From contig JBLKOQ010000001.1 of assembly GCA_047602885.1 (NCBI GenBank), positions 10,016-74,015 of the forward strand: a stretch of 64,000 bases of DNA, given 5' to 3'. The position numbers were made by a program, and so were the translations under genes. This stretch comes from Candidatus Woesearchaeota archaeon (GTDB taxonomy: Archaea; Nanobdellota; Nanobdellia; Woesearchaeales; WAPJ01). Below are positions 29,185 to 50,606 of this stretch, piece by piece; position 1 is the first letter of the stretch; every line of letters begins with the position of its first letter. The notes under the pieces are model-generated. The model was not told the origin of the DNA. It saw only the letters and a program-made list of their open reading frames with translations, and did no database searches.

Positions 29185-31230
29185 TTAATGTACCATTCCC
29201 ATGGCCCTGTCAAAAGCATCCTTGGCCAGAGAATATCCTCCCTGAGGATGGTTAAAAGAGCCCCATGACAAGGAATAGACATTGTTGGGAGTGGAAAGTA
29301 TTCTCGCATGACTGGTACATTGATCCCTACATCCCTTGTCAATAATATCAAGTGTTATCCTATTCGCATTATTATCATAATATAATAATGCATCATAATT
29401 GTCTAATTCCAACAATAATTCAATATCACTATTATTATTTCCAAGGTATCCTAACAGTCTTAATGCGCTATTATCATAAGTATCATTGTTGTTAATGCTG
29501 ACATTGTTTTCATACCCCCTAATTATTCCTTCAAGCCTTGCAATCTCATTTTCATTATCCCTAATTATGGACTCGTAAGAGCTAATCAAATTATCTTGGT
29601 CTTCTAAAGCACTGGTAAGATTGTTTAATCCTGAAAGCTGGACTTCTAAAGACGTTATAGTGGATTGCTGGTCTCTTATGATAGTACGGTATTCTGATAA
29701 TTGGCCTGCATTATCATTATTTTGAGTCCTCTCATGATTAAGCGCCTGTTCCAGCTCTTCTATAGTATTGTCTTTCTCGCTTATCGTGGATTCGTAAGAA
29801 GCAATCATTTTTTCCTGTTCTTCAACAATCACAATAATCTCGCCCATAGTAGAAAACAGTCCTTCGTAATATGCTATGCTGGCAGCCTGGTCATTAATAA
29901 TAACAGAATACTCTGAAAGTCGCCTAGCACTATCATTATTATGGGCTTTCTCATTATTGAGGGCTTGTTCGAGTCCTTCTATAGTATTATTTCTCTGTGA
30001 TATTATCCTTTCATATTCCGAGATAGTATCATCACCAATACTGCTTGTTAGTATATTGTCAATATCATCTTCAAGCCTACTAATAATATCATCCTTCTCT
30101 CTTATCATAGACTCATAGGAAATAATGAGGCTATTTTTCTCTTCTAAGACATCAGTCATGCCCGATAATGACGATAGCTGTATTTCAAGAGATGATATTG
30201 TAGACTGCTGATCAGTTATTATAGCGTTATATTCTGACATTTGAACAGAATAGTCATGATTATTTCTTCTCTTACTTTCAAGAGCCTGCTCGAGACTTAG
30301 AATAGTACTATCATAATCGCCTAGTTGGCTCCTAAGATTATGAACAGAAGCCTCTAATGAAACTATCCTAGTGTTCTTTGATGCTATTATACCCTCATAA
30401 TGAGACACAATATTAGTAGTGTCAGAATCCTCTAATAATGATGCAATATCGTTTTCTAGCCTGCTAATAGTATTATCCCTATCCCATACCATGGAATTGT
30501 ACTGATCTAGCAAAGACTCATTATCACTGATTATTGCATTAAGATTGTGCACAGTATTCTCAAGCGATGATATAGTAATATTATGCTCATTAATAATCCT
30601 CTCATAATCAGTGGTTGAAGATGACATCCTTACAATCATATCATTATGCTCTGCAATAACACTTTCATAGTCAGCTATAGTAGCTTTTAAGGAATCATTC
30701 TCTGCTGTCAAAGCATCTATTCTTGACAATGATTCGGAATGGCTGGAGCGCAGCGATATTAGTTCGTTACTCCTCCTAGTATCAATCTGCTGGGCATTAA
30801 TAATCCTAGCATTAAGAGATTCGTTTTCAATAGACAAAACATTAATCCTATCAAGAGCATTCTCATAATCAGACAATGCAGTCTTTACAACATGGGACTC
30901 TCCAGCCCTTTCCATACCAATCCTATAATGATGAATGCCCTCAAGAGCCATAGTCAAAGCCCCTATGCCTACAGCCAATGTTATAGAGCCTCCTAATAAT
31001 GTTTTTTTATGCCTCGCATAAGCCTTAGACAATCTCCTACCAAATCCCATGCCCTTATTATCATTAGGAGACATCTCTTTAATCCTGCGCTCATAATCCG
31101 TATCAAATATATTGTCATCCATAAAGAACAGAATATCATCAGTATTAATAAGAAAAACGTGGAATAATCCGAAAATATCACGATGGAGTACTAGAAGATT
31201 TCTTGAATATTTCTTTAAGACCGGGAGCAT
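29185..31230 (-). CDS. membrane-anchored long coiled-coil protein with about 115-aa tandem repeats and a Cys-containing C-terminal globular domain
   Basis: TM helix near aa 85-105; about 450 aa of repeated ...LSEYxxIIxDQQSTIxSLExQLSxL...YESxIxEKDxxIxxLE... units. Confidence 0.55.
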   Translation of the reverse strand: MLPVLKKYSRNLLVLHRDIFGLFHVFLINTDDILFFMDDNIFDTDYERRIKEMSPNDNKGMGFGRRLSKAYARHKKTLLGGSITLAVGIGALTMALEGIHHYRIGMERAGESHVVKTALSDYENALDRINVLSIENESLNARIINAQQIDTRRSNELISLRSSHSESLSRIDALTAENDSLKATIADYESVIAEHNDMIVRMSSSTTDYERIINEHNITISSLENTVHNLNAIISDNESLLDQYNSMVWDRDNTISRLENDIASLLEDSDTTNIVSHYEGIIASKNTRIVSLEASVHNLRSQLGDYDSTILSLEQALESKRRNNHDYSVQMSEYNAIITDQQSTISSLEIQLSSLSGMTDVLEEKNSLIISYESMIREKDDIISRLEDDIDNILTSSIGDDTISEYERIISQRNNTIEGLEQALNNEKAHNNDSARRLSEYSVIINDQAASIAYYEGLFSTMGEIIVIVEEQEKMIASYESTISEKDNTIEELEQALNHERTQNNDNAGQLSEYRTIIRDQQSTITSLEVQLSGLNNLTSALEDQDNLISSYESIIRDNENEIARLEGIIRGYENNVSINNNDTYDNSALRLLGYLGNNNSDIELLLELDNYDALLYYDNNANRITLDIIDKGCRDQCTSHARILSTPNNVYSLSWGSFNHPQGGYSLAKDAFDRAMGMVH

Positions 31231-35142: not shown

Positions 35143-35421
35143 TTAAAGTCTATGATTTATAATCTTTTTCTAATATTATTGGCAGTGGATCATGTTATTT
35201 ATTGAATATATTAGTTGTTAAGATGATAAACATTGTTTTATGATGGGAATATCGGCTAACTCATAAGAGACAATTTTACAGGGCTTATAATACATAAAGT
35301 CATAGTGACTAGAAAAAGGAGCTGTATAATCCTTTCGATAATAGTGCTAAGCATAGTCTTTATAGTCGTTACATTTATAAAGGACTCTTGTTTAAAAATT
35401 ATGATATAAACATATCGGGGT

Positions 35422-38400
35422 TTGGGCTTGAAACAAGTTGTAGTGCAAGTAACGATAGTAGTAGTTATAATAGCTGCGCTTATATTCACATTCTTTAGTA
35501 TTGGAGAGCCTACAATTACAGGTTATGCTGTATTTGAGAGCAGTGTTAGTAATGTCAGTTATGACGTGGAAAGGGTAGTGTTGCCACAAGAAACTTATAC
35601 TATTCAGTTGGAAGATAATGTTGTTGTAAGAGGAATAGTAATTAATGGTTATTATATTGCAAGCAAAGATTCTAGTATTATTGCAAGGCTTGATGAAGGG
35701 ACTATTAGTCATGAATTGAGGTTGAGAAGCAATGTTATTACTGGCATGGCTATCGGTGCTGGAGAAGTTGAGAGTGGTATGATAGAAGAAGACTTGGCTA
35801 ATAGGACTTTGTTGAGGTATGGTGATGGTCCTTATGATATCGATAATGATGGAATGGTAGGGAGACAAGGAGCAGTAGACTATTATGTTGAAACTAATGC
35901 TTCTTGTGTATTATGGAGTATTGTAGGGGATGATGTTGACCTATTCTGTCAGGGAACAATAGAATGCTGTGACAGTTATCTATTGGAGAGCATGGATGAC
36001 AATCCCAATTATTTAGTGTTGGATAGGCAAAGAGCAGGTGCTGACAGAGGAGAAGTATTGGCCAAAGCTGACGGTTATGATTTTAGTAGAATGTTGCCTT
36101 ATGATTTTACTGGTGCTGAGGAGAGACTGGTAAGATTGGATGATGTTTGTTTGGGAAGTTGTAATGTTAGGATGCAGAGCAGTAGTATAAGGATAGAGAG
36201 CAGTGCTTATTTGCATATAGACAGGATTATAGTATATTATGATGATTTGCCAGACGATGAGATATTTGATACAGAGGATGGCAACATAATAGAAGAAGTA
36301 TTACCAGAAAAAAGAGTCATAAGAGAAGAGATGATAGAATATATAGTGTATGAGTCAGAAGGAGGTATTATTGGAAGAACCGTCTCAGAACTAAAAAGTC
36401 ATTATGGTCTTAGCAGGGCATCTGAACGTTCAGCAAAGATATTTTCAATGGATTATGAGCATATCAGTGAAGAGGAAGAAACAGAGTATACCGAAGGGAT
36501 TAATGCTCATATAATTAGAGTATCATCAGAGCTTCTAAATCTAGTAACAGAAGAAAGCGTAAGAATCATAATATTAAATGAATCAGGAATATACTCAGAA
36601 TACGCCAATAATTTATCAGAGCTAAACGAAATACTACACTCTAAAGAAGTTATAACAGCTAGTATCGACAGACAAATAGAATTGTTAACACAAGATACTC
36701 TTAATGCATCAGGGTTTATATCAGTATATAATGAGTATGAGGTTTCTGGTTCTGGTGTTCGTGTATGTATTGTAGATACGGGTGTATCGGGTCATGTGGT
36801 TGAGAATATATCATATACTGGTGTCAATGTTCTTGATGGTACCGATGACATAATGGATTACCATGGCCATGGTACTCTTGTTTCGTACCCTTTGATTCGT
36901 GCATTACCTGATGCCCATTATGTGATTGTAAAGGCTTTGGATGATACTGGGATAGGATATGAGTCTGATGTTATTTCTGGATTGGATGCGTGTGCTGAAC
37001 ATGATGTTGATGTTGTTTCTCTTTCTATAGGAGCTGGATTGTATGATGGGTACTGTGATACTAACCTTGTATCAGAGCGTGTGAATGAACTTGTGTCTGA
37101 AGGAGTCTTGGTAGTTTCTGCTGCAGGTAATGAGGCTGGTCCTTATTTGAAGGCTCCTTCATGCGCTTCCTCTGCTCTTGCAGTTATTGCTTACACTGAT
37201 GATTCGTTATGGTATCAGTCTTCATACTTGGAAGGTCATGCAGTATTTGCCGCTCCTGGTGTTGTTGAGACTATTGGTCCTGATGGTTCTGTGGTTTTAT
37301 CTTCTGGTACGTCTATGAGTGTTCCTTTTGTTAGTGCAGCTGCTGGTTTATTGGTTGAGTATACTAATGACACGGGACTAGTGTTACGTAACAGACTGGT
37401 TGGCACAGGTGATCTGCTTGGTGATGAGTTCTTGTTTTCTCGTCTGAATGTTTCGAGGGCTTTTTCGGGTGAGATTACGAATGAGTTGTTGTATAATATT
37501 AGCGAGGGCGTTGAGGTAGAGGGGACTGTATATTATCGTGGTACGAGTTTTATTGCAGGAACTATCACCACAGGAAATGGGCATTCGTGTGGTATTCGTG
37601 CTGTTGATGGTCGTGTTTTGTGCTGGGGTAGGAATAACGTGGGTCAAATTGGCGATGGTACAACTGCAGGTCCTCGTACGAATCCTACTTTAACTACTGA
37701 TACTTCTGCATATACTTTTATTTCATCAGGCGAACAACATTCGTGTGGTATTCGTGCTAATGATTCTCGTGTTTTGTGCTGGGGTAGTAACGGGAATGGT
37801 GTGCTTGGTGATGGTACTACTGTTCAGCGTGAAAATCCTACTTTGATTAATGATTCTTCAGCGTATCTTACACTTGGGTTAGGTCAAGGTCATTCGTGTG
37901 GTATTCGTGCTAATGATTCTCGTGTTTTGTGCTGGGGTTGGAATGGGAATGGTCGACTTGGTGACGGTACGGATGAAGCTCGTTGGAATCCTACATTGAC
38001 TTCTGATACTTCTGCATACAGCGGAATAACTGCAGGTGCCCACTACTCGTGTGGTATTCGTGCTAATGATTCTCGTGTTTTGTGCTGGGGCACTAATAAT
38101 TATGGTCAGCTTGGTGATGGTACAGATGTTGTTCGTTGGAATCCTACATTGACTTCTGATACTTCCGCTTACCTACATGTTTCTGGAGGAGGTTGGCATT
38201 CGTGTGGTATTCGTGCTAGTGATTCTCGTGTTTTGTGCTGGGGTAGGAATAACGTGGGTCAGATTGGCGATGGTACTACCACCACTCCTCGATTGAATCC
38301 CACTTTAACTACTAACACGTCTGCGCATGGTACTGTTTCTGCTGGAAACGATTATTCGTGTGGTATTCGTGTCAATGATTCTCGTGTTTTGTGCTGGGGT

Positions 38401-41400
38401 GCTAATGATTATGGTCGGCTTGGTGATGGTACTACTACAGGTCCTCGTACAAATCCCACTTTGACTGCAGACTCTTCTGCATATGTAGCCGTTTCAGCGG
38501 GGGATTGGCACACTTGTGGTATAAGATCTTACGATGGTCGTGTGTTGTGTTGGGGGTATAACGAGTTCGGTCAGATTGGCGATGGTACCACTACGACTCC
38601 ACGTCAAAATCCAACGCTTACAAGCAACATGGCTCCATTCGCCGAAATTCCTTGGGTCTTTACAACATGCGAAGCAACTGGTCGCACTGGTCCTACTCAA
38701 GGTATGTGTGACGATGCATACGAATACTCTTATCTGAACAATAGTGTAACTGTATCTTCAGGCATACAATCATGGACTGTTCCTGAGACGGGATGGTATA
38801 ATGTTACTGCAGTTGGAGCTCAAGGAGGATACGGTGGGAGAACGGGTGTTGGGGGATACGGCGCTCTCATTTCAGGTGCTTTCTACTTCGAAGAGGGAGA
38901 GACAATCAATGTTCTCGTTGGTCAGAAAGGTGGAGATAACTCGTTTCGACCGGCAGGTGGTGGTGGAAGTGCAGTGTGGAAGGATACTGGAACCGAACTC
39001 CTCATCGTCGCTGGAGGTGGAGGAGCGTATGCAGTTGGAACAACGACCACCTACCAGGACCGAGCACACGCGAGCAACACAACAAGTGGGAAGGATGGAT
39101 TTGGTGCCACGGCTCAGAGCGTGGGTGGAACCGGAGGTCTTGGAGGTGCCGGAACAGGTAACCGAGCCTCTGGTGGTGGAGGATGGTTTACTGATGGTGG
39201 ACAGGGCACGACGGCTGACAGTCGTGGCCGATCCCTCTCAGGAGGGGGTCTTGGAGGTGGTGGTGCTGTAGCTGACGGTGGATTTGGTGGTGGCGGAGCG
39301 ACCGATAGCACGACGACATGGGGTGCTGCTTCTGGTGGTGGTGGGTACTCTGGTGGTGGGGGTGGGTATTCTAACACAAACGATGCTGAAGGAGCTGGGG
39401 GCGGTGGAGGATCATACAATTCTGGGTTGTTCCAGTATAACGTCGGAGGAGAGAACGCTGATCATGGCTTGGTCATTATCGAGCCATACGGTGATGTCTC
39501 ATTACTCACCGTGGGAGTTACTCCTTCTCCCGAAGCGAACGCTACCGATGATCTTCTTGGATATTGTACGAGTGATGTCATCGATGGATTCGACCGGATC
39601 GACTATGAGTGGAGACGTGACGGCATAGTCGAGTACATGGGAACGTACTTTAGAGCAGATACGATCACAGCGCATGAAGCTCACACTTGTGGTATTCGTG
39701 CTAATGATTCTCGTGTGTTATGTTGGGGACGCGCGGGTAGTGGTGAGATTGGGAATGGAAGCAAGCTACCACAAGTGCTTAATCCAACACTCACCTCTGA
39801 TACTGATCCTTACCTTCAAGTGAGCGTCGGATTCACTCATTCGTGTGGTATCCGCTATGACGGAAGAGTGCTCTGCTGGGGAAACAACGCTGAAGGGCAG
39901 TTGGGAACAAACGATACGACTGAACGACTCGTTCCTACTTTGATTGCGGATGATGCTGCCTACCATTCCCTCAGCGCAGGATACCGGATGAATTGTGCGA
40001 TACGTGCTAATGATTCTCGTGTGTTATGTTGGGGTGACAATGTATTCTCTCAACTCGGCAGTGGAGGTGGATCGGTGAGCGTTCCGAGGCTCATCAATGA
40101 TACCGCTTCCTACCTGATGGTTTCCACTTACAAGTACCACGCGTGTGGTATTCGTGCTAATGATTCTCGTGTGTTGTGCTGGGGGATGAACTGGTACGGT
40201 CAGGGTGGTAATGGAACAACTGACGAGTTCGTGTCATCCGAGACTCCGACCCTCACGACCGATAGTTCACCATATGTAATGGTAACAACAGGTGCCTCTC
40301 ATACGTGTGGTATTCGTGCTAGTGATTCTCGCGTGTTGTGCTGGGGTCGTAATAATAATGGGCAGCTTGGAATCGGTTCGAGCGGTACAAATGTCGGTAA
40401 CCCCACAACGACTTCAGATTCATCTGCATATCACTACATAGATGCTGGTTGGCAGTTCTCATGTGGCATCAGATCGTCTGATAATAGAGGTCTTTGTTGG
40501 GGGGATAATGGTGAGGATAAACTTGGTATCGGAACGACCGGTAATCGTGAAAACCCTACACTTATATCTGCTTCGTTTGCGATATCGTTGATTACTGCTG
40601 GTGAACGCCATGGGTGTGTGGTTCGCTCTTCGAATGGGCGTGTGTACTGCTGGGGACAAACTGCTGAAGGACGTACAGGAGATGGGGTAGGTATTGGTAC
40701 TGAGCACACACCGACGCTCACAACAGACACTTCCTCGTATGCGTACTTACCTGCTATTGCCTCTGGCGTGCAGTATAACCTCTCAACACTTGACTCAACG
40801 ATAACGAATGGTGGAGACTCATGGACGTTCTCATGCCGGATTACAGACGGTCGAACGACCTATCCATACGAGGAGAGTGCTACGATAACGATTGCAAACA
40901 TTATTCCGATTTATTCAAAGTTTGATGGTTCAACAACGAACTTTTCTGATGCTAGTGTTGTTCCTGACCTTTCAAGCGTGAGCAATCCGATTCTTGAGAT
41001 ATCCACGTTCGGACGCATCACATGGAAAGGTATGGTAAACGTTCCTAGTTCAGATTATGATTCTCATGTGCATATTGGTTATCGGTACATTTTTGTTAAT
41101 AGTAGCGCGTTGCATTCATCTCATGATTCGGGTTCGAATTTGAGCTTTTATGATACGGGCTTCGTGCATGCTCCTGTCATCCTCAAAGATAGTTCTGTGT
41201 GTGAACAACCCTTGTGTAACATGACTGGATTTGTTGATGGTTACGTGAATTACTCAGTGGCTGGTTTCTCAAACTACACGCTTGATTCTAATAGTCGATT
41301 GGAGATCTGGGATGGTACTGATCCTCAAGGAGGAAATAATTCGTATGAGGTTGGTGAATCGGTGCCTTTCTATGCAAATTATTCGAATCTGACTTCTGGT

Positions 41401-44400
41401 GAACCGATTTCGGGTTCGGGGAACGATTGTGAGATCCAATTTGATACTGGGAGCGGGTATGGGAGTTTTATAGAGATGGAATTTAACGCAACAAGTAACT
41501 TGTACGAGTACAACACCACATTTGGATCTGCAGGGACGTTCAGTTATAACGTGAGTTGCACTAGCACCCAAGGATATGAGAACCTGAGCGTGACTAATGA
41601 GTTCACATACAATCCTGCAAACTGTTTTGACAATTCGACGAGTCCTATACCAATTTGTACATGTACTGATCTTAGCAGGATGTGGGAGAACCTTACAGCA
41701 AACTATGAATTGCAGAATAATATAGACTGTAGTGATACTATTAATTGGAATGATGATGAGGGATGGCTGCCTGTAGGGACAACAGGTACGGGTTTTAGTG
41801 GTACGCTGGATGGGCAGGGATATAATATTACTGACTTGTTCATTGCTCGAAATAATGTTGGTTATCAAGGTTTGTTTGGTCAGTTAACTACAGGAGGAAG
41901 CATTACTGATTTAGGTTTGGTGAATGCGAATATCACCATAAAAGACACACTCAGTATAGTGACTCCATATATTGGGATTCTTGTAGGATATATCGATGGA
42001 GGCAGTGTCTCTGGATCTTATGTCACAAATAGTATTCTCTATAGTGATTTTCCCTCTACTGGTGGTCTTATAGGAGAAATGAGTGGTGGTAGTGTTGTCT
42101 CATCTTCTTTTGTTAGTGGTTCTAGTGTTTCTTCTTCTACTAGTAATGTTGGTGGTCTTATAGGAAGAATGAGTGGTGGTAGTGTGTCATCTTCTTATAC
42201 GGTGGATTCTAGTGTTTCTTCTACTGGTAGTAGTGTTGGTGGTCTTGTAGGATATATGCTGAGTGGTAGTGTTGTTTCATCGTCTTATACTATTGGTTCT
42301 AATGTTTCTTCTACTAGTACTCGGGTTGGTGGTCTCGTAGGAAGAATGTGGAGTGGTTCTAGTATTGTTGATTCTTACAGTACTAGTAATGTTTATGCTC
42401 TTGCAGGAGAAAACTTACAATATCATGGTGGACTAGTAGGACAAAACTATAGGGGAGTGATAAACAATTCTTATAGTACAGGAATAGTTAATAGTACACA
42501 TGATGATAGTGGTGGTTTTGTAGGAAGCGTAGATACAGGAGCTGCGACTTATGGTATGTATGGTAACTTCTGGGATAACCAGACAAGCGGTCGTAGTACT
42601 AGTGCTGGTGATAATGTAACAGGACTTACTACAGCGCAGATGTATAATATCAGTCAGTTCTTAGCGGCAGATTGGAATATTAGTGAGATTAGCGGTTATA
42701 ATAATGAGACTTGGTTTATTGATGATGGTAATGATTATCCTAGATTATGGTTTGAGTTTGATCTTGCTTTATTGGATATTGAGTCTGTAGGCATTATTCC
42801 AAGTCCTTTTGCTTTGGATGATGAGAATCTCGTAGGGTATTGTAGTGCTACTGGTAGTGAGAATTTTACGAGGTTGGATTATTTGTGGTATAAGGATGAT
42901 GTAGTGGAGTATGGGGGTGCTTATTTCAAGGAAGGAAGTATTAGTGCTGGTGGGGAGTTTTCTTGTGGTGTTCGTGCTAATGATTCTCGTTTGTTGTGTT
43001 GGGGTGCTAATTTTGTTGGTAAGTTGGGTATTGGTAATACTACTCATATGTATAGTCCTGTTTTGGTTGATTCTTCTGATGCTTTTTTGAGTGTTTCTGT
43101 GGGTGTTTCTCATTCTTGTGGTGTTCGTGCTAATGATTCTCGTGTTTTGTGTTGGGGGCTAAATAGTGAGGGGCAGTTGGGTATTGGTAATACTACTGAT
43201 ATGTTTAGTCCTGTTTTGGTTGATTCTTCTGATGCTTTTTTGAGTGTTTCTTTAGGTAGTTTTCATTCTTGTGGTGTTCGTGCTAATGATTCTCGTGTTT
43301 TGTGCTGGGGTGGTAATATTTATGGTCAGTTGGGTGTTGGTAATACTACTGATATGTTTAGTCCTGTTTTGGTTGATTCTTCTGATGCTTTTTTGAGTGT
43401 TTCTTTAGGTAGTTTTCATTCTTGTGGTGTTCGTGCTAATGATTCTCGTGTTTTGTGTTGGGGTGGTAATTGGGTTGGTCAGTTGGGTGTTGGTAGCGCT
43501 GTTTATGATTCGTGTTTTGATGGTTATGAATATTACGATTGTAGTTTGAATCCTGTTTTGGTTGATTCTTCTGATGCTTTTTTGAGTGTTATGGTGGGTG
43601 TTTCTCATTCTTGTGGTGTTAGGGCGAGTGATTCTCGTTTGTTGTGTTGGGGTGCTAATGCTAATGGTCAGTTGGGTGTTGGTAATACTACTGATATGTT
43701 TAGTCCTGTTTTGGTTGATTCTTCTGATGCTTTTTTGAGTGTTGGTCTTGGTTTTGGACATTCTTGTGGTGTTAGGGCGAGTGATTCTCGTGTTTTGTGT
43801 TGGGGACGTAATTTTGGAGGTCAGTTGGGTGTTGGTAATACTACTAGTCCTATTATGGTTCCTGTTTTGGTTGATTCTTCTGATGCTTTTTTGAGTGTTG
43901 ATGGTGGTTTTGGTGGTGGTTTTGGTGAGCAGCATACGTGTGGTGTTCGTGCTGTTGATGGTCGTGTTTTGTGTTGGGGTGATGGTTCTTTTGGTGCTTT
44001 GGGAACAGGCAATACTAGTTCTCAGTTGAGTCCGACTCTTACTATTGATTCGAGCAGTTATCTTAGGGGGCTTTCTCCGCAGACGACTTATAATGTTTCT
44101 TTGATAGGGAGTGGGTTGACTAGTTTGGGGGAGGAGTGGAAGCTTAGTTGTCGCGCTGTAAATGTTACTAGTGCGGGGGATTTTGTTAATTCTACTGTTA
44201 CTACGATTGATGAGGGTGAAGAGGGTTTGGATTGTGGTGTTATCGATGAGCCTGGAGAGTATATTATGAATGGCGACCTTGCGGCTACCGGAACTTGTAT
44301 TACTATTAATGTTAGTGATGTTTCATTAGATTGTCAGGGTCATACGATCAACTACTCTACAAACGATGACGAGGGCTACGGTATCCTGATATGGAGCCAG

Positions 44401-47400
44401 AGCGGGACGGTCGAAAACGTGAGTATCGCGAACTGTAACATCATCAAAGAGAGTCCTGGAGGGAGCTCAGGGAGTAGGCGCCCAGCTATCCTCGGATACG
44501 GCTACTCAGGTACTCCTTCAGGAGGTTTCACAAAATCAGGTGATGAGCATACTGTTGAGCAAGTAAATATATCGAACGTTACTATCACGACCGAGGGAGA
44601 TTATGCTCGAGGCATATTTGTCTTAAGTGGTCATACTTGGAGTGTCGAAGATGTCTCTATCACAACGTATGGAGATGATGCCCGAGGAATCTACAGCGAG
44701 AACTCTGATCATTGGAGTCTCAGGAGAGTTGATATCACGACCTTTGGAACTGTAGGGATAGGACTGTATACGATCGATGCAAACCACTACTATCTCAAGG
44801 ACATCGATATCACTGCTGCGAGCGCAGGCATGTGGATCCGCACGGGAAGTTCGAACTGGCGGGCAGAGAACATTTCGATAAATGCTACGCTTCAAGGTAT
44901 CGCGACATCGGACGGAGGTATGGCTCACATGAGTTTTTACAACTCTACGATCCACTCATCAGGAAGCCGGGGATTAGATACCAATCAAGGTACAGATAAC
45001 ATCAGCTTCTACGATTCTATTATCACCGCTCCATCAAGTGACGATGTATACATGCGTCTTGGTGATGCGAGTCGGCGTGTTACGTTCGTCAACGTGACTT
45101 TCAACCCTTCCAGTGTCACGTTCCATGACTCGACCTCAGGATTCCTCGACGTTGGATGGTACGTCGACTTTCTCGTAAACGATACTCTAAGTTATCGAGT
45201 TGAGAATGCTAATATTAGTTGGCAGGATTCTGGTGTTATGAGCAGTTTGAACCCTAACAGTACTGGTTGGAAATTAACTGATAGTGGTGGATTGTCTCTA
45301 AGAAATATATTGTATGAGTACTCGCAGAACCAAACTGCTAGGTACTATCATACTAACTATAGCTTCGACATAAGTAGCCCATCATACGCTTCCCTTGTTG
45401 GAGCGTCTAGGAACTTCACTACAAATACACAATTGGATTTTACTATAGAGCCATTGTCGTTGGAGTGTGGTGTTATTAGCGAGCCTGGCTCTTATGTTAT
45501 GACTACTAATCTTACTGCTACAGGCACGTGTTTCACTATTAATGTTAGTGATGTAATACTGGATTGTCAGGATTATACTATTAATTATTCGACTGCTGAT
45601 GAGGGTTATGGTATTTTGATTTGGAGTCAGTCTTCTAATGTGGATAATGTTACGATACAGAACTGTGTTGTTGTGCAGGGTTCTGGTGAGGGTGATGTGA
45701 ATAGTGCGCGTCCTGGTATTTTGGGTTGGGGTGTTAATAATGGTCCGAGTGGTGGTTTGTCGAGTGTTAGTGGTATTTTTTATGAGGTTACTAATGTTTT
45801 GGTTGTGGATTCTAGTATAGTAACATTGGGTGATCGTTCGGATGCTATTAGGGGTGCGGTTTCGTATGACTGGGATGTTGTGGGTGTGAATGTTTCTACT
45901 GCTGGTCAGCTTGCTTCGGGTGTTTTTGGTACTTTTACGGGGGGTTGGTTGTTGTCTGGTGTTGATTCTTTTACTACCGGTGATAATTCTAGGGGTTTTG
46001 CTAGTTGGGATTCTGTTGATTGGGAGATTGTGGATTCTCGTTCTGAGGTTACTACTTTTTATTCTTATCCTATTCGTGCTGAGGAGGGTTCTCATGGATG
46101 GGTTCTGTCCAATGTTTCTCTTATCTCTGATGGTTTTGAGTCTGATGGGCTTCATGTGATTGATTCGGATAATTGGATGGTTGAGGGTCTTTTTGTTTCA
46201 TCATCGGGCACTCAGGCTGATGCTTTTTATTTAGAGGATTCTGATGGTTGGATGGTTTATGATTCTGATTTGTCTAGTGGGTCTGCGTTTGATGTTGTTC
46301 TTAATCTTAGTGATTCTTCGTATCGTGTTGGTTTTGTGAATACGAGTTTTGATCATTCTAGCGTGTCTCTTCTTACTCCGGGCTGGCTTGATAGGGGTTG
46401 GTGGGTGGATGCGTATGTGAATGATAGTCTTGGCAGTCCTGTAGAGGATGCTAATGTCTCTTGGAATGATGCTGGTATTATTAGTGGGAATCCTAGTAGT
46501 AGTGGTTGGAATGTTACTGATGATAGTGGACTTAGTGTTAGGAATGTCTTGTTTGAATATTCTGAGAATCAAACTGCGAGATATTATAATACTAATTATA
46601 CTATTAATGTTAGTCATGAGGATTATGATGATCTTATAGGAGAGTCAAGGAATTTTACGGGTAATACGCAGTTGAACTTTACTTTTTTGGGTGAGTCTTT
46701 AGAGTGCGGTGTTATTAGTGAGCCTGGCGAGTATGTTATGACTTCTGACTTGTCTGCTGCTGGTACTTGTTTTACTATTAATGTTTCTGATGTTAGTTTG
46801 GATTGTGGGGGTCATACGATTAACTATAGTACTGGTGAGGAGGGTTATGGTATTTTGATTTGGAGCCAGGGTGGGTTGGTTGAGAATGTGAATGTTAGTA
46901 ATTGTAATATTGTTAAGGATAGTGAGGAAGGTAATAGTTCGAGTCTTAGGCCTGCCTTACTTGTTTATGGTCGTAGTGCTGTTCCTAGTGGTTCTATTAG
47001 TGGTATTGCGGGTACTGCTCATTATGTAGATAATGTGTCTATTAATAATGTTAATGCTAGTAGTAAGGGAAATTATAGTAGTGGGATTTTTATAGTGCGA
47101 GGATGGTATTCTTCTATTAGTAATGTTATGGTTGATACTGATGGTAATTGGAGTTTTGGGATATGGGGCGATTACTCTTCTTATTGGAATATTTATAATA
47201 CTAGTATTTTTTCGTTAGGGCTGTTTAATGTTGGTCTGTATGGGGTGGATTCTAATTTTTGGGTTTTAGATAGTTTAAATGTAGATGTTGAGTTCAATGA
47301 TGGTCATGGTATTATTGGTTTTCGGTCAAATTCTTGGATTCTTTATAATGTTACTGTTATTGCTGACGGTTCTACAGTTAGGGGAATATCTCTATGGGAT

Positions 47401-48882
47401 CTTAATAACTGGACTGTTATAGACTCTTTTATTGATAGTACTTTTTATGATATTAATATGGAGTTAGATCATAGTACTCGTCAAGCTTTTTTTATTAATA
47501 CAAGCTTTAATAAGAGTAGTGTGTATTTTACTAATGCTAATGCTGGTTGGCTTAATCGTGGTTGGTGGGTTGATTCGTATGTTAATGATACTATAGGGAA
47601 TCCAATTAGTGGTGCTAATGTGAGTTGGGTGGATAATGGTAGTCTTGCAAGCAATCCTTCTGCTAGTGGTTATAGTTTGACTTTGGTTGATGGGACGGTG
47701 AGGAATGCCATATTCGAATATTCTCAGAACCAGACTCATACGTTTGAGCATAATAATTATACTTTTAATGCGAGCAAGGAAGGATTCTTACATAGTGATA
47801 TTGTTCAAAATATAACTGATAATGCCTTCATTTACTTTACATTAGAAACCGATGACATTGATCCTCCGACATGGTCTGATCCTTGGGATAACAGTACTGA
47901 TACTAGCCCTAGGATTAATGAGAATATAAGGATGAACTTAACACTAAACGATGATGTTGACTTGTTCAGCTATACTTTTAGTTGGAATGGTACTGGTTCA
48001 TGGACTAATGATAGTATACAGTTAATATCAGGCACAGAGCATATTTTAAGCGTTATTAAGCAAGTAGGATTGCCTAGAGACAATACTATAGGATGGAGAG
48101 TATACTTTAATGACAGTGCAGAAAAGACAAACATCTCTGATATATTCACATTCACTGTAAAGAACACTCCTCCTGATGTTCCTATACTAAATTATCCTCT
48201 AAACGACAGTGATATTTACAATAGAACGCCATTATTCAACTGGACGGGATTCGATGCAGACTCTGATGAATTAACATACAACCTCACGATATACTGCATA
48301 GGAGGATGCAGTGCTGACAACAGGCATTATCAAGGAATAACAACTAACGAATTCCAGCTTGAAGAAGAACTCCAGTTCCTATACGATGACGGATACTCAT
48401 ACTTGTGGAGCGTTAATGCATGCGACCAATATGAATGCTCAGAATACTCCCAAAACAACACGTTCACTCTCTCAAGCCTCTTATCAGTCAGATTCACACA
48501 AAACGATTCGGACTTCGGCATGATGCAGCTCGGACAAACCAATAGTACTGAGGATAACAGCCCAAACCCTCTTGTACTGGTAAACGAAGGAAACGTAAAA
48601 GTAAATATTAGCTTCTACGCCCAAACCCCGTTATTTGAAAGAGCTGCACTGCCAAGCCCATTCTTTGAGGCAAGAATAAGGCCATTAATAGGAAATTATG
48701 GCATAGACACTAATACGAGCTGGTTTGACCTGGACGATTCAGAAAACCCTGCTCACATGCTAAGAAAACTAAATTATACAACAGACAATAATGCCACTAT
48801 AGACTTAAGAGTAACAGTTCCTATAGACGAGCCTCCAGCAGAGAGGAGCAGTACTATTACAGCAATGGTGGTGATGTCATGA
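35422..48882 (+). CDS. giant secreted multidomain surface protein (4486 aa): signal anchor, S8 subtilase, RCC1 block 1, ALK-like glycine-rich domain, RCC1 block 2, GLUG repeats, RCC1 block 3, three tandem beta-helix modules, fn3-like C-terminus
   Basis: Uninterrupted 13.46-kb ORF; apparent TTG start (in-frame stop just upstream). Catalytic triad motifs IVDTG / HGHGT / GTSMSVPFVSAAAG. More than 20 copies of an HSCG(I/V)RANDSRVLCWG...G.LG.G motif. Three about 410-aa modules each starting L(D/E)CGVI(D/S)EPG.Y(I/V)M. Confidence 0.85.
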   Translation: MGLKQVVVQVTIVVVIIAALIFTFFSIGEPTITGYAVFESSVSNVSYDVERVVLPQETYTIQLEDNVVVRGIVINGYYIASKDSSIIARLDEGTISHELRLRSNVITGMAIGAGEVESGMIEEDLANRTLLRYGDGPYDIDNDGMVGRQGAVDYYVETNASCVLWSIVGDDVDLFCQGTIECCDSYLLESMDDNPNYLVLDRQRAGADRGEVLAKADGYDFSRMLPYDFTGAEERLVRLDDVCLGSCNVRMQSSSIRIESSAYLHIDRIIVYYDDLPDDEIFDTEDGNIIEEVLPEKRVIREEMIEYIVYESEGGIIGRTVSELKSHYGLSRASERSAKIFSMDYEHISEEEETEYTEGINAHIIRVSSELLNLVTEESVRIIILNESGIYSEYANNLSELNEILHSKEVITASIDRQIELLTQDTLNASGFISVYNEYEVSGSGVRVCIVDTGVSGHVVENISYTGVNVLDGTDDIMDYHGHGTLVSYPLIRALPDAHYVIVKALDDTGIGYESDVISGLDACAEHDVDVVSLSIGAGLYDGYCDTNLVSERVNELVSEGVLVVSAAGNEAGPYLKAPSCASSALAVIAYTDDSLWYQSSYLEGHAVFAAPGVVETIGPDGSVVLSSGTSMSVPFVSAAAGLLVEYTNDTGLVLRNRLVGTGDLLGDEFLFSRLNVSRAFSGEITNELLYNISEGVEVEGTVYYRGTSFIAGTITTGNGHSCGIRAVDGRVLCWGRNNVGQIGDGTTAGPRTNPTLTTDTSAYTFISSGEQHSCGIRANDSRVLCWGSNGNGVLGDGTTVQRENPTLINDSSAYLTLGLGQGHSCGIRANDSRVLCWGWNGNGRLGDGTDEARWNPTLTSDTSAYSGITAGAHYSCGIRANDSRVLCWGTNNYGQLGDGTDVVRWNPTLTSDTSAYLHVSGGGWHSCGIRASDSRVLCWGRNNVGQIGDGTTTTPRLNPTLTTNTSAHGTVSAGNDYSCGIRVNDSRVLCWGANDYGRLGDGTTTGPRTNPTLTADSSAYVAVSAGDWHTCGIRSYDGRVLCWGYNEFGQIGDGTTTTPRQNPTLTSNMAPFAEIPWVFTTCEATGRTGPTQGMCDDAYEYSYLNNSVTVSSGIQSWTVPETGWYNVTAVGAQGGYGGRTGVGGYGALISGAFYFEEGETINVLVGQKGGDNSFRPAGGGGSAVWKDTGTELLIVAGGGGAYAVGTTTTYQDRAHASNTTSGKDGFGATAQSVGGTGGLGGAGTGNRASGGGGWFTDGGQGTTADSRGRSLSGGGLGGGGAVADGGFGGGGATDSTTTWGAASGGGGYSGGGGGYSNTNDAEGAGGGGGSYNSGLFQYNVGGENADHGLVIIEPYGDVSLLTVGVTPSPEANATDDLLGYCTSDVIDGFDRIDYEWRRDGIVEYMGTYFRADTITAHEAHTCGIRANDSRVLCWGRAGSGEIGNGSKLPQVLNPTLTSDTDPYLQVSVGFTHSCGIRYDGRVLCWGNNAEGQLGTNDTTERLVPTLIADDAAYHSLSAGYRMNCAIRANDSRVLCWGDNVFSQLGSGGGSVSVPRLINDTASYLMVSTYKYHACGIRANDSRVLCWGMNWYGQGGNGTTDEFVSSETPTLTTDSSPYVMVTTGASHTCGIRASDSRVLCWGRNNNGQLGIGSSGTNVGNPTTTSDSSAYHYIDAGWQFSCGIRSSDNRGLCWGDNGEDKLGIGTTGNRENPTLISASFAISLITAGERHGCVVRSSNGRVYCWGQTAEGRTGDGVGIGTEHTPTLTTDTSSYAYLPAIASGVQYNLSTLDSTITNGGDSWTFSCRITDGRTTYPYEESATITIANIIPIYSKFDGSTTNFSDASVVPDLSSVSNPILEISTFGRITWKGMVNVPSSDYDSHVHIGYRYIFVNSSALHSSHDSGSNLSFYDTGFVHAPVILKDSSVCEQPLCNMTGFVDGYVNYSVAGFSNYTLDSNSRLEIWDGTDPQGGNNSYEVGESVPFYANYSNLTSGEPISGSGNDCEIQFDTGSGYGSFIEMEFNATSNLYEYNTTFGSAGTFSYNVSCTSTQGYENLSVTNEFTYNPANCFDNSTSPIPICTCTDLSRMWENLTANYELQNNIDCSDTINWNDDEGWLPVGTTGTGFSGTLDGQGYNITDLFIARNNVGYQGLFGQLTTGGSITDLGLVNANITIKDTLSIVTPYIGILVGYIDGGSVSGSYVTNSILYSDFPSTGGLIGEMSGGSVVSSSFVSGSSVSSSTSNVGGLIGRMSGGSVSSSYTVDSSVSSTGSSVGGLVGYMLSGSVVSSSYTIGSNVSSTSTRVGGLVGRMWSGSSIVDSYSTSNVYALAGENLQYHGGLVGQNYRGVINNSYSTGIVNSTHDDSGGFVGSVDTGAATYGMYGNFWDNQTSGRSTSAGDNVTGLTTAQMYNISQFLAADWNISEISGYNNETWFIDDGNDYPRLWFEFDLALLDIESVGIIPSPFALDDENLVGYCSATGSENFTRLDYLWYKDDVVEYGGAYFKEGSISAGGEFSCGVRANDSRLLCWGANFVGKLGIGNTTHMYSPVLVDSSDAFLSVSVGVSHSCGVRANDSRVLCWGLNSEGQLGIGNTTDMFSPVLVDSSDAFLSVSLGSFHSCGVRANDSRVLCWGGNIYGQLGVGNTTDMFSPVLVDSSDAFLSVSLGSFHSCGVRANDSRVLCWGGNWVGQLGVGSAVYDSCFDGYEYYDCSLNPVLVDSSDAFLSVMVGVSHSCGVRASDSRLLCWGANANGQLGVGNTTDMFSPVLVDSSDAFLSVGLGFGHSCGVRASDSRVLCWGRNFGGQLGVGNTTSPIMVPVLVDSSDAFLSVDGGFGGGFGEQHTCGVRAVDGRVLCWGDGSFGALGTGNTSSQLSPTLTIDSSSYLRGLSPQTTYNVSLIGSGLTSLGEEWKLSCRAVNVTSAGDFVNSTVTTIDEGEEGLDCGVIDEPGEYIMNGDLAATGTCITINVSDVSLDCQGHTINYSTNDDEGYGILIWSQSGTVENVSIANCNIIKESPGGSSGSRRPAILGYGYSGTPSGGFTKSGDEHTVEQVNISNVTITTEGDYARGIFVLSGHTWSVEDVSITTYGDDARGIYSENSDHWSLRRVDITTFGTVGIGLYTIDANHYYLKDIDITAASAGMWIRTGSSNWRAENISINATLQGIATSDGGMAHMSFYNSTIHSSGSRGLDTNQGTDNISFYDSIITAPSSDDVYMRLGDASRRVTFVNVTFNPSSVTFHDSTSGFLDVGWYVDFLVNDTLSYRVENANISWQDSGVMSSLNPNSTGWKLTDSGGLSLRNILYEYSQNQTARYYHTNYSFDISSPSYASLVGASRNFTTNTQLDFTIEPLSLECGVISEPGSYVMTTNLTATGTCFTINVSDVILDCQDYTINYSTADEGYGILIWSQSSNVDNVTIQNCVVVQGSGEGDVNSARPGILGWGVNNGPSGGLSSVSGIFYEVTNVLVVDSSIVTLGDRSDAIRGAVSYDWDVVGVNVSTAGQLASGVFGTFTGGWLLSGVDSFTTGDNSRGFASWDSVDWEIVDSRSEVTTFYSYPIRAEEGSHGWVLSNVSLISDGFESDGLHVIDSDNWMVEGLFVSSSGTQADAFYLEDSDGWMVYDSDLSSGSAFDVVLNLSDSSYRVGFVNTSFDHSSVSLLTPGWLDRGWWVDAYVNDSLGSPVEDANVSWNDAGIISGNPSSSGWNVTDDSGLSVRNVLFEYSENQTARYYNTNYTINVSHEDYDDLIGESRNFTGNTQLNFTFLGESLECGVISEPGEYVMTSDLSAAGTCFTINVSDVSLDCGGHTINYSTGEEGYGILIWSQGGLVENVNVSNCNIVKDSEEGNSSSLRPALLVYGRSAVPSGSISGIAGTAHYVDNVSINNVNASSKGNYSSGIFIVRGWYSSISNVMVDTDGNWSFGIWGDYSSYWNIYNTSIFSLGLFNVGLYGVDSNFWVLDSLNVDVEFNDGHGIIGFRSNSWILYNVTVIADGSTVRGISLWDLNNWTVIDSFIDSTFYDINMELDHSTRQAFFINTSFNKSSVYFTNANAGWLNRGWWVDSYVNDTIGNPISGANVSWVDNGSLASNPSASGYSLTLVDGTVRNAIFEYSQNQTHTFEHNNYTFNASKEGFLHSDIVQNITDNAFIYFTLETDDIDPPTWSDPWDNSTDTSPRINENIRMNLTLNDDVDLFSYTFSWNGTGSWTNDSIQLISGTEHILSVIKQVGLPRDNTIGWRVYFNDSAEKTNISDIFTFTVKNTPPDVPILNYPLNDSDIYNRTPLFNWTGFDADSDELTYNLTIYCIGGCSADNRHYQGITTNEFQLEEELQFLYDDGYSYLWSVNACDQYECSEYSQNNTFTLSSLLSVRFTQNDSDFGMMQLGQTNSTEDNSPNPLVLVNEGNVKVNISFYAQTPLFERAALPSPFFEARIRPLIGNYGIDTNTSWFDLDDSENPAHMLRKLNYTTDNNATIDLRVTVPIDEPPAERSSTITAMVVMS
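36700..37450 (+). other. subtilisin-like S8 peptidase domain within the giant protein
   Basis: Asp near 36775 (CIVDTG), His at 36868-36870 (HGHGT), Ser at 37312-37314 (GTSMS). Confidence 0.7.
37560..38620 (+). repeat. RCC1 block 1: seven tandem about 150-156-bp repeats (CATTCGTGTGGTATTCGTGCTAATGATTCTCGTGTTTTGTGCTGGGGT core), CGT/GGT/GTT codon regime
   Basis: Core recurs at 37582, 37738, 37891, 38041, 38206, 38352, 38509. Confidence 0.75.
38740..39500 (+). other. glycine-rich domain resembling the ALK/LTK-type glycine-rich domain (Pfam Gly_rich-like): VLVGQKGG ... LLIVAGGGGAY plus poly-Gly tracts
   Basis: Motifs INVLVGQKGGD, GGGGSAVW, LLIVAGGGGAYA, multiple GGGG(Y/S); GC-richer codon regime. 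Confidence 0.45.
39530..40740 (+). other. RCC1 block 2 (about 8 repeats) preceded by a linker homologous to the one before block 3; GC-richer codon regime
   Basis: Repeats HTCGIRANDSRVLCWG ...; linker VTPSPEANATDDLLGYCTSD ... parallels IIPSPFALDDENLVGYCSAT ... at 42790. Confidence 0.6.
41790..42750 (+). other. GLUG-motif repeat region (GGL(I/V)G(R/E/Y)M(S/L/W)GGSV ... x6)
   Basis: Repeated VGGLIGRMSGGSVSSS-type units about 25 aa long; opening GTLDGQGYNITDLF is typical of GLUG domains. Confidence 0.5.
42950..44010 (+). repeat. RCC1 block 3: seven tandem about 153-180-bp repeats; units at 43216-43371 and 43372-43527 are nearly identical
   Basis: CATTCTTGTGGTGTTCGTGC core at 42958, 43111, 43264, 43426, 43606, 43759, 43934; GATTCTTCTGATGCTTTTTTGAGTGTT recurs 6 times. 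Confidence 0.75.
44200..47830 (+). other. three tandem about 1.2-kb homologous modules (A 44200-45430, B 45430-46690, C 46690-47830) with right-handed beta-helix (pectate-lyase-like) character
   Basis: Each begins L(D/E)CGVI(D/S)EPG(E/S)Y(I/V)M ... TINVSDV(S/I)LDC(Q/G)(G/D)(H/Y)TINYST ... EGYGILIWSQ and ends ... ARYY(H/N)TNY. Module A is in the GC-richer regime, B and C in the GT-rich regime. Confidence 0.55.
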
Positions 48883-50057
48883 AAAAAGCACTGCTATTGC
48901 TGATAATACTATTAACTGCAATCATGATAATAGAAGAATCAGTAGCATTCGGAGTGAGTCCAGGCAGAAAACAGTATGACTACCAGCCACAACTAGACGG
49001 TTACATAAACATCATAAACAGCCATAAGGAATCAGGAGAACTCATAATAGTCGCTAGAGGAGAATTATCAGAATACGTAATATTCAGCGAAAGGACAATA
49101 AAACTGGATCCCAACGTCCACGAAAATAGGGTTCATTATACTGTAAGAGTGCCCCAAGACAAGTTAGAGCCAGGCTCCAACGAAATAGATGTTTATATAA
49201 TGCCGATGACATTCGATACAGACCAGTCCACAGTATCAGCGCAGGCAGGAATAATCTTTAGAATAATAGTAAACCTTCCTTACGACGGGGCTCATGCTAC
49301 AGGAAGAATAGACTATAACAGCAGAACTAACACCATAATAATACCCGTAACAAATGTAGGAACACAAAGAATAGAAGATGCAAGAGCATCAGTAAGCATT
49401 ATAGGGCCTACAGGAGATATCATATCATCAAAATCGTCATCATCCAAAACCATAGGAATAAGAGAAACCATAGAATACAACATACCTTTAGATGGCATTA
49501 GCAACGGGCATTATCTTGCAAGAGCAACCATAGAATATGACAATAAAATACTAGTAATAGAAAGGAATATAGCGGTGGGAACAGCATTAATAGCAGTGCA
49601 ATCGATAGAAATGCCTGAATTCAGGTATGGTCATATAAATAGGATAGACATTAACGTAAAGAGCGAGTGGAACCAAGTAATAGAGGACGCTTATGCCATG
49701 ATAGAAATAATAGGACCTGCAGGAACACTAATAGAAAGGATAAAAACACCAGGAGAAAGAATAGAGCCTTACAGGACAAGCATACTAAGAGGATACTGGG
49801 ACACTGCAGGAATAACTCCAGGAGACCACCAGATAATAGCCACAGCAGTAGGAGAAGGAGGAAATGATACCAAAAGAACCATGGTTACCATAACCCCTAC
49901 AGGAATAGTAATGCAACAGCCTACAGGAAGAGTCGCAGGAGAAGGGGGGATGGGAATACTAGGAGTAGCACTCGCATTCCTGATAATAGCAAACATTATA
50001 CTGTTTGCGATAATACTATCAGGAAGAAACAAAAACAAAAAGAATAAAAAGCAGTAA
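48879..50057 (+). CDS. secreted protein with C-terminal TM anchor and basic tail, translationally coupled to the giant gene
   Basis: ATGA overlap with the giant ORF stop; N-terminal signal; C-terminal GMGILGVALAFLIIANIILFAIILSGRNKNKKNKKQ. Confidence 0.55.
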   Translation: MKKALLLLIILLTAIMIIEESVAFGVSPGRKQYDYQPQLDGYINIINSHKESGELIIVARGELSEYVIFSERTIKLDPNVHENRVHYTVRVPQDKLEPGSNEIDVYIMPMTFDTDQSTVSAQAGIIFRIIVNLPYDGAHATGRIDYNSRTNTIIIPVTNVGTQRIEDARASVSIIGPTGDIISSKSSSSKTIGIRETIEYNIPLDGISNGHYLARATIEYDNKILVIERNIAVGTALIAVQSIEMPEFRYGHINRIDINVKSEWNQVIEDAYAMIEIIGPAGTLIERIKTPGERIEPYRTSILRGYWDTAGITPGDHQIIATAVGEGGNDTKRTMVTITPTGIVMQQPTGRVAGEGGMGILGVALAFLIIANIILFAIILSGRNKNKKNKKQ

Positions 50058-50073
50058 CCAAAAAGGCATTATA

Positions 50074-50346
50074 ATGGTAGCAAATAAGACTACTAAAGCA
50101 AAAAAAACAACCAAAAAGAAGGTAGTGCATCCTAAGCCATATTCCGACCTCACGTTCTACCAGAAGAAGATGAGAGAAGAAATAAGAAAACTGCATGACG
50201 CTACAGAAACATTCGTAAGAATAGCAGTAAACAAGACGGCAAAAGAAAACAAGATACACGAGATAGAAGAACACATACTAGAGATAGGAAGAAATATTGA
50301 CGAACTAGAAGACCTACTGCATGATATTAGCAAGGGGAAAGTATGA
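50074..50346 (+). CDS. small lysine-rich helical protein (paralog A)
   Basis: 90 aa, KKTTKKK N-terminus, shares an (I/L)RKLH(D/K) core with the next ORF. Confidence 0.4.
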   Translation: MVANKTTKAKKTTKKKVVHPKPYSDLTFYQKKMREEIRKLHDATETFVRIAVNKTAKENKIHEIEEHILEIGRNIDELEDLLHDISKGKV

Positions 50347-50606
50347 TGACAACAAGAAAGAAAAGCAGGACAATAAGCAAGACTAAGAGCAGAAAAAGAA
50401 CTGTTGCTAATAAGAAGGATCAGGACATTACTATAGCATTAAGAAAGCTCCATAAGGACATGGAAGACAGTCTAAAAAGGATGGAGTCACTAATAGGAAA
50501 GATAGAGGATGACAAAGCCAAGCCAAAAATAAAGAAAGCCATAACAAGGTTTCATAAGAAACAAAAAGAACAATTAACAAAAGTAGTGAAAACAACAAAA
50601 AAATGA
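50343..50606 (+). CDS. small lysine-rich helical protein (paralog B)
   Basis: 87 aa, 4-nt overlap with paralog A, LRKLHKDMEDSL core, K-rich both ends. Confidence 0.4.
   Translation: MMTTRKKSRTISKTKSRKRTVANKKDQDITIALRKLHKDMEDSLKRMESLIGKIEDDKAKPKIKKAITRFHKKQKEQLTKVVKTTKK

Follow-up and report, generated by a model that had tools for sequence, protein, structure and literature searches.

DPANN archaea are mostly uncultured episymbionts, and both their attachment to hosts and the retention of very large surface proteins that lack an anchor, on a membrane possibly devoid of a classical wall, are poorly understood. The present work concerns a giant protein and the protein encoded directly downstream of it (hereafter the partner) on contig JBLKOQ010000001.1 of the Candidatus Woesearchaeota archaeon assembly GCA_047602885.1, within a stretch of 64,000 nucleotides (nt; positions 10,016 to 74,015 of the forward strand) that we call the window and number from its first letter. 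Among the closest described systems, the WxL/WxLIP clusters of Firmicutes encode large and small proteins with a common C-terminal domain, plus a transmembrane (TM)-anchored binder made of Ig-like domains in tandem (PMC10599100, PMC9772566); this TM-anchored Ig tandem, WxLIP, binds the C-terminal WxL domain of both small and large surface proteins (PMC10599100; PDB 9i25), and a disordered hairpin in its D1 domain is predicted to complete the WxL sandwich (PMC10599100). In Sulfolobus, SlaB, which consists of three beta-sandwiches and a C-terminal TM segment, anchors SlaA, a secreted and heavily glycosylated protein of 1424 amino acids (aa), through the SlaA C-terminal domain (PMC10903991). The SPEARE proteins of Nanohaloarchaeota, which combine serine-protease with adhesion domains, are DPANN surface proteins of giant size and are thought to mediate host contact (PMC6642349). 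The literature that we searched, in an incomplete survey, holds no link of DUF916, DUF3324 or WxLIP to archaea, and no description of the cluster reported here.

We propose, with a probability that we put at roughly 0.55, that the partner is a non-covalent membrane dock tethering surface proteins, the giant among them, which end in a conserved C-terminal domain (CTD). The open reading frames (ORFs) and domains on which this proposal hinges are the following.

35422..48882, + strand: giant ORF, 4486 aa, TTG start at 35422 (an alternative TTG at 35428 gives MKQVVV...)
48172..48474, + strand: fn3-like domain, giant aa ~4251-4351, present in all upstream proteins, with a predicted local distance difference test score (pLDDT) >90
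48475..48879, + strand: CTD, the terminal beta-sandwich, giant aa ~4352-4486, presumed docking tag (hidden Markov model and AlphaFold2)
48879..50057, + strand: partner ORF, 392 aa, predicted type I membrane protein of an unnamed DPANN family

Hidden Markov models (HMMs) derived from the proteins of the locus, the CTD model being built from 6 giants, were run on all six-frame ORFs of 86 sources. In 75 of 82 non-redundant loci the nearest same-strand upstream protein of the partner ends in the CTD, with only 0-7 residues past this domain in 71/75 loci; the seven loci without a CTD protein lie at contig ends or on short flanks, six of them with <400 nt of upstream sequence and the seventh with 1.8 kb. 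The association also holds in the reverse direction, as 4/4 independently found CTD proteins (404-437 aa) have a partner 2-3 genes downstream (HMM E 1e-101 to 1e-136). Complete upstream CTD proteins range from 215 to 4486 aa, the giant of the window being the longest seen, and their bodies are unrelated (Peptidase_S8, RCC1, laminin-G, FG-GAP or beta-helix). Because the same tail is carried by unrelated bodies of such different lengths, the partner is associated with the CTD module and not with protein size. The first-pass annotation of this DNA, which had pointed to synteny in relatives as a check, had taken the partner as a candidate anchor or adaptor subunit for the giant: homologues do co-occur with related upstream proteins, a lack of co-occurrence is thereby refuted, and the idea stands in so far as synteny and architecture fit an anchor, with the amendment that the link is to the C-terminal module rather than to giant size.

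The conserved tail of the upstream proteins spans ~250 aa and comprises the fn3-like domain (motifs NRTPxFxW, D.DGD.LTY and YYW.V) followed by the terminal ~135-aa beta-sandwich, the CTD (motifs FG, P.P, N.GN and VP..E..G). Residues conserved in the CTD include F129, N152, G154, P231 and E234, counted along the final 250 aa. An AlphaFold2 (AF2) model covering the C-terminal 250 aa of the giant, built from a 27-sequence alignment, contains the fn3-like domain and a complete 8-strand sandwich (pLDDT 90.5, predicted template-modelling score 0.78), and among the 50 matches listed by Foldseek for this model there are only generic tandem FN3 structures. Pfam Ig_Rha78A_N (Ig_Rha78A_N/fn3) matches the fn3-like domain in 17/68 relatives. 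Homologues of the CTD had to be sought with an alignment as query, the lone window sequence having returned 1 protein; an HMM made from stand-alone proteins of ~200 aa matches the giant at aa 4348-4483 with an E value of 1.5e-10.

Both genes meet in a compact junction, which contains the following signals.

48867..48875, + strand: Shine-Dalgarno-like GGTGGTGAT, within the end of the giant ORF, 3 nt ahead of the partner ATG
48879..48882, + strand: ATGA start/stop overlap (putative translational coupling), the same overlap occurring in loci L001, L051, L057, L018, L082 and L026

The ATG of the partner (48879-48881) and the TGA of the giant (48880-48882) form a 4-nt ATGA overlap, the giant frame reading ...GTG ATG TCA TGA, in agreement with the earlier description of a 392-aa ORF opening on the stop of the giant. 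This overlap is present in 7/9 loci whose partner directly abuts the upstream gene, and GGTG motifs resembling a Shine-Dalgarno sequence also precede the partner start in L001, L057, L051 and L018. In addition, a protein identical to the partner is annotated as hypothetical in a metagenome-assembled genome of a Candidatus Woesearchaeota. The identical annotated protein, the large profile family described below and the recurrent ATGA overlap argue together that the partner ORF is no chance reading frame. As a separate observation, mobile-type cassettes, namely nucleotidyltransferase/HEPN toxin-antitoxin pairs and Bro-N genes, recurrently sit between the CTD protein and the partner (L002:7433-10004, L007:5405-6455, L012:7931-9938, L021:1358-2700 and L024:2529-5634), which suggests a hot spot for such cassettes at this junction.

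The partner can be divided into the following parts.

48879..48947, + strand: signal peptide, aa 1-23, predicted cleavage at SVA/FG (sequence, hydropathy and the conserved motif directly after it)
48948..49286, + strand: ectodomain D1, aa 24-136, beta-sandwich of PapD/ASH type, its loop at aa 112-122 modelled with low confidence
49287..49586, + strand: ectodomain D2, aa 137-236, CARDB / WxLIP_HBD-like
49587..49916, + strand: ectodomain D3, aa 237-346, membrane-proximal, with YWDTAG (aa 306-311) as the most conserved motif of the family
49950..50018, + strand: TM helix, aa 358-380 (hydropathy; AF2 helix 360-388), with L368/N372/F376 conserved
50019..50054, + strand: Lys-rich basic cytoplasmic tail SGRNKNKKNKKQ

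Its N-terminus, MKKALLLLIILLTAIMIIEESVA followed after the predicted cut by FGVSPGR, combines a basic n-region with a hydrophobic core of 15 aa and an SVA site of the small-x-small type, and the conserved N-terminal motif of the family, A-x-G-[IV]-[ST]-P-G-R, stands immediately past the signal peptide. Kyte-Doolittle analysis shows two hydrophobic segments, aa 1-28 and 352-385, and no others, and the AF2 model, built from a 13-sequence alignment (mean pLDDT 82), places helices at aa 2-17 and 360-388, with a 13-residue linker between D3 and the TM helix. The C-terminus reads ...MGILGVALAFLIIANIILFAIILSGRNKNKKNKKQ, and the net charge of the tail is positive in all relatives, with a mean of +5. 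The signal peptide, C-terminal TM helix and Lys-rich tail that had been assigned in the first pass are therefore recovered by sequence, hydropathy and AF2, the cleavage itself being a prediction, and the topology derived from them would place the three domains outside the cell and the tail in the cytoplasm. The TM helix is conserved in sequence at L368, N372 (97% of 67 relatives), W/L375 and F376; a conserved Asn in a single-pass TM helix suggests that the dock may oligomerise or touch another TM protein. One N-X-S/T sequon (0.67 per 100 aa would be expected) and no Cys residue are found in the partner.

On the giant protein the following further features were recognised.

35374..35381, + strand: TATA-box-like TTTATAAA, ~40-50 nt 5' of the giant ORF, read from the sequence
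35422..35520, + strand: N-terminal hydrophobic segment, aa 1-33, ending in FFSIGEPTITGYA ahead of VFESS (hydropathy)
36748..37377, + strand: Peptidase_S8 (subtilase) domain, aa ~443-652 (Pfam E 2.8e-21)

The TATA-box-like element is a possible, if weak, candidate for the promoter of the operon. Kyte-Doolittle analysis gives aa 1-33 as the sole hydrophobic segment, so that the giant indeed has no C-terminal anchor, as had been noted before; the segment is likely a signal peptide or a signal anchor, cleavage again being a prediction. An N-terminal pattern of ~20 hydrophobic residues, a few further residues and (L/I)TG(Y/F)A is common to the giant, where it reads ITGYA, and to stand-alone CTD proteins (e.g. 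L002:11485-12114), and may represent a signal-peptidase site typical of the lineage. Many CTD proteins start with a conserved basic motif of ~35 aa, MVYKKYIKRNGKxYGPYxY....GKV.T.YLG, ahead of a TM segment (L008:152-, L030:2755-, L055:1499-, L056:1775-, L073:987-, L074:7437-, L078:7202- and L084:1890-), which is lacking in the giant of the window. Pfam recognises RCC1 repeats (propellers) and GLUG motifs in the giant besides Peptidase_S8, and its 136 N-X-S/T sequons, 3.0 per 100 aa versus 1.33 expected from composition (2.3x), and 84 Cys make it a candidate secreted multidomain glycoprotein. In its sequons and Cys residues the giant contrasts strongly with the partner.

The partner belongs to a large family. 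Among representative clusters formed at 50% identity, a profile of 13 homologues matched 4467 with E<=1e-3, of which 1771 reached E<=1e-30; almost all of the matched proteins are 385-430 aa long and align end to end. Genome scanning gave 77 loci. Most of these bear titles of Woese-, Pace-, Nano- or Aenigmatarchaeota or of Parvarchaeum, and the few under 'Methanosarcinales' or 'bacterium' could be binning errors. When 115 members were scanned singly against Pfam, the commonest match was WxLIP_HBD (35/115 at E<=0.01, best 2e-8), followed by CARDB (15), BsuPI (7, weak) and WxLIP_PGBD (DUF916; 2, best 4.9e-4); P0009 scored 28.8 bits against WxLIP_HBD, whose cut-off is 28.9. The family profile also matches the PDB CARDB-like domains 2kl6 and 3idu at ~5e-5, over D2, and the Foldseek matches of the partner model include PDB 9i25 (WxLIP) and the Haloferax S-layer protein 7ptp. 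The likeness between the partner family and WxLIP is remote, and it rests on fold, weak profile matches and architecture.

Pairwise-distance matrices over 67 syntenic CTD protein/partner pairs, evaluated by Mantel test and bootstrap, indicated that the CTD diverges in parallel with the partner ectodomain (r=0.71; Mantel p<=5e-4). The correlation was lower between the fn3-like domain and the partner (r=0.41) and between the fn3-like domain and its own CTD (r=0.46), the bootstrap differences from the CTD-partner value being 0.28 (95% confidence interval 0.12-0.46) and 0.24 (0.07-0.41), respectively, both of which exclude 0. Among the partner domains, D3 gave the highest value with the CTD (0.69), followed by D1 (0.64) and D2 (0.61). 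This correlated divergence fits co-evolution of the CTD and the partner, of which it is an indirect sign.

Clusters in other genomes extend this picture. The CTD protein and the partner are separated by 300-700 nt in 45 loci, a distance that matches the size of a conserved gene for a protein of ~160 aa that is present in 69/86 sources (e.g. L008:9471-9938, L002:8604-9089 and L006:8955-9500) and is found neither in the window nor in the other loci where the CTD gene and the partner abut or overlap. The ~160-aa protein matches nothing in Pfam or NCBIfam. At its N-terminus lies a TM segment, an fn3-like 'YYWKV' domain and a short stretch resembling the CTD are also present, and the protein ends in a pattern like ..EG.Q. 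Judged by its sequence, it resembles a small N-anchored copy of the tail of the giant. We considered that it might have been fused into the giant of the window and rejected this, as its HMM has no match in the window and only a weak paralogous one in L001; the idea that the loci without this gene form a single clade was likewise discarded, since identity among their partners is only ~25%.

A second partner paralogue occurs in 41 loci, and 32 of these 41 have 1-3 stand-alone CTD proteins between the paralogues, just upstream of the second. The stand-alone proteins, of ~200 aa, consist of a signal sequence and the CTD; neither they nor a second paralogue are found in the window, and the window locus and 8 others comprise a large protein and the partner only, with no small CTD subunit. 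This repetition of a unit formed by a CTD protein followed by a partner argues for a pairwise function. In the extended clusters downstream of the partner (L002:11306-20757 and L008:11265-20548) a pair of 60-aa and ~210-aa proteins, the latter a stand-alone CTD, is sometimes duplicated and precedes the second partner paralogue (~385 aa), after which come proteins of ~146, ~134, ~660, ~55 and ~1300 aa and a MoxR-type (bpMoxR/AAA_3) ATPase, none of them annotated. As a side observation, 5-6 consecutive radical-SAM genes lie a few kb 3' of the partner in two related loci (L006:12186-20704 and L007:11767-18176).

The proposal of a dock follows from the architecture of the partner, the absence of a C-terminal hydrophobic segment from the giant, the synteny, the duplication of the module, the correlated divergence, the structural precedents and the ATGA coupling. 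Architecture, family, near-universal synteny and correlated divergence are observations; binding of the CTD by the partner, its stoichiometry and the anchoring role are what we infer from them. The giant would be exported via the Sec pathway, its N-terminal signal being lost or only weakly holding, and its CTD would come out last, near the membrane, where the partner ectodomain would capture it non-covalently. Translation from an ATGA-coupled start on a shared mRNA would allow the partner to be made in step with the giant, and its TM helix would then tether the protease/RCC1/beta-helix giant to the archaeal surface.

Several points weigh against a dock of this kind. The N-terminal hydrophobic segment of the giant might stay as its own anchor, which would make a second anchor unnecessary. 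The distance correlations are confounded by shared phylogeny and alignment quality, of which the fn3-like control removes a part, and no charge complementarity of CTD and partner is apparent, every ectodomain being acidic, as is the CTD. Neither Pfam nor NCBIfam has a family that the partner of the window itself matches, and a search with the family profile misses the solved WxLIP sequence at E<10. On the cargo side, the CTD has no Pfam or NCBIfam match, Pfam WxL is found in 0/68 CTDs and in none of the small CTD proteins, and no WxL structure is among the 50 Foldseek matches listed for the CTD module; on these last two grounds we rejected the CTD as a WxL domain.

Comparison with the WxL systems gives both likenesses and differences. 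WxLIP, as encoded in the Csc clusters of Lactobacillales and Listeria, resembles the partner in its architecture, which runs from a signal peptide through Ig-like ectodomains in tandem to a C-terminal TM helix with a basic end, and the three-dimensional similarity extends to the solved WxLIP; the clusters are also alike, with large proteins carrying a C-terminal domain and small ones made of a signal peptide plus that domain. However, WxLIP has two ectodomains and the partner three, and DUF916/PGBD and the NQIDKxxxYFDLK motif of WxLIP do not occur in the partner family (apart from the 2/115 weak matches), where A-x-G-[IV]-[ST]-P-G-R is found instead. WxL cargo has dual Trp-x-Leu motifs, whereas the tail of the DPANN cargo is an fn3-like domain plus a beta-sandwich, analogous but not homologous. 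Moreover, the TM helices of WxLIP are reported to be without homology, unlike the conserved partner helix with its N372, most DPANN loci have the extra ~160-aa N-anchored component, and the DPANN hosts are wall-less or peptidoglycan-free, so that peptidoglycan binding, unlike in WxLIP, cannot be the principle of anchoring.

SlaB shares with the partner the signal peptide, the three beta-sandwiches, the C-terminal TM helix and a gene adjoining that of a large protein, but it has a 132-aa coiled-coil stalk and forms trimers, whereas the partner has only the ~13-aa linker. SlaA is a lattice protein, in contrast to the upstream CTD proteins, which are highly variable enzyme/adhesin arrays, and no sequence or fold match to SlaA/SlaB was found in PDB sequence searches or among the Foldseek matches listed. 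Membership of the WxLIP or the SlaB family is not established for the partner, DUF916, the WxL domain and the SlaB coiled-coil being all absent. SPEARE proteins possess a TM segment of their own close to the C-terminus and, in the cytoplasm, a restriction-enzyme domain; the giant of the window has neither, though it does have Peptidase_S8, and unlike SPEARE it appears to hand anchoring to a separate gene.

It is tempting to speculate, tentatively and with the odds somewhat against us, that the window holds the minimal form of a DPANN-wide display system in which a C-terminal tag directs diverse secreted proteins to TM-anchored docks of three Ig-like domains, these docks being possibly remote homologues of WxLIP. 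Fuller versions of the proposed system may add the ~160-aa mini-CTD protein, stand-alone CTDs with a second dock, and large proteins beside a MoxR ATPase.

The strongest alternative, which we nevertheless regard as unlikely, is that the partner acts as a membrane-tethered PapD-like chaperone or assembly factor, capping the CTD transiently by beta-strand complementation and aiding the polymerisation of CTD-bearing subunits to a fibre or lattice, in which the small CTD proteins would be the major subunits and the large ones tip adhesins, without being a permanent anchor. Many loci have a second partner paralogue accompanied by 1-3 stand-alone CTD proteins, which would suit such an assembly, as would the ~160-aa N-anchored protein with its look of a truncated CTD module, and the PapD-type Ig fold occurs in D1 of the partner, whose low-confidence loop (aa 112-122) recalls the WxLIP D1 hairpin. 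Yet the window and 8 further loci have no small subunit to polymerise, the CTD is modelled as a complete 8-strand sandwich (pLDDT ~90) with no strand missing, no usher-like component is seen in the loci, and the conserved TM helix and basic tail point to permanent residence in the membrane. PapD chaperones are soluble two-domain proteins working with an outer-membrane usher and strand-lacking subunits, whereas the partner is TM-anchored, three-domain and archaeal, its cells have neither usher nor outer membrane, and the CTD is modelled as complete.

Still less probable, in our judgement, is that the partner is an independent envelope protein, such as a stalk, an S-layer-like protein or an adhesin-type Ig tandem, which shares the operon and does not bind the CTD. 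Tandem Ig-like ectodomains with a C-terminal TM helix are common in archaeal envelope proteins, the Foldseek match to 7ptp is in keeping with this, and the interaction between the CTD and the partner is deduced rather than observed. Such a protein would nonetheless hardly be expected to show near-universal adjacency to one C-terminal domain whatever the upstream body, co-duplication of the CTD protein and partner as a module, a CTD-partner correlation above that of the intra-protein fn3-like control, and conserved ATGA coupling. Finally, the notion that the partner inhibits the subtilase of the giant or confers immunity to it, prompted by BsuPI-like Ig-fold protease inhibitors (the weak BsuPI matches in 7/115 members) and by the Peptidase_S8 domain of the giant, is highly improbable and was rejected, as the association tracks the CTD and holds in loci without a protease, most upstream CTD proteins having no protease domain, others having RCC1/Laminin_G or beta-helix bodies, and the 404-437-aa CTD proteins looked up having no recorded Pfam match.

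Other genes of the window include two small ORFs next to the partner, at 50074-50346 (90 aa) and 50343-50606 (87 aa), the first of which starts 17 nt past the partner stop; they contain no TM segment, and both have counterparts in L001, the closest relative (73% and 37% identity), the 90-aa product being a basic coiled-coil protein. Elsewhere in the window the following were found.

1-1677, + strand: VWA-domain protein, cut by the window start, putative envelope protein
11121-13202, - strand: PF09826 beta-propeller protein, 693 aa, putative envelope protein
17903-19744, - strand: DUF11/HYDIN-like-Ig/CARDB protein, 613 aa, putative envelope protein
29185-31230, - strand: 681-aa ORF with coiled-coil-type Pfam matches only (ATG16, crescentin rod)

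The 681-aa ORF may encode a cytoskeletal or structural protein. Scans of the window for tRNA genes and Rfam families gave nothing.

If the partner is a dock and the module its tag, a single pair of profiles would flag surface-displayed proteins in thousands of DPANN genomes, the C-terminal tag serving as a search key for those involved in host contact. Such a dock would also explain why the giants have no anchor of their own, and the interaction of two defined proteins would become open to tests in vitro, with no need for a culture of the organism. The components belong to no Pfam or NCBIfam family, and naming them would improve the annotation of >4000 clusters at 50% identity. More generally, the logic of the WxL/WxLIP clusters would then extend from Gram-positive bacteria to archaea, and, should the docks prove to be remote homologues of WxLIP, they would represent an ancient cross-domain principle of protein display that was rebuilt on another cargo tag in peptidoglycan-free cells.

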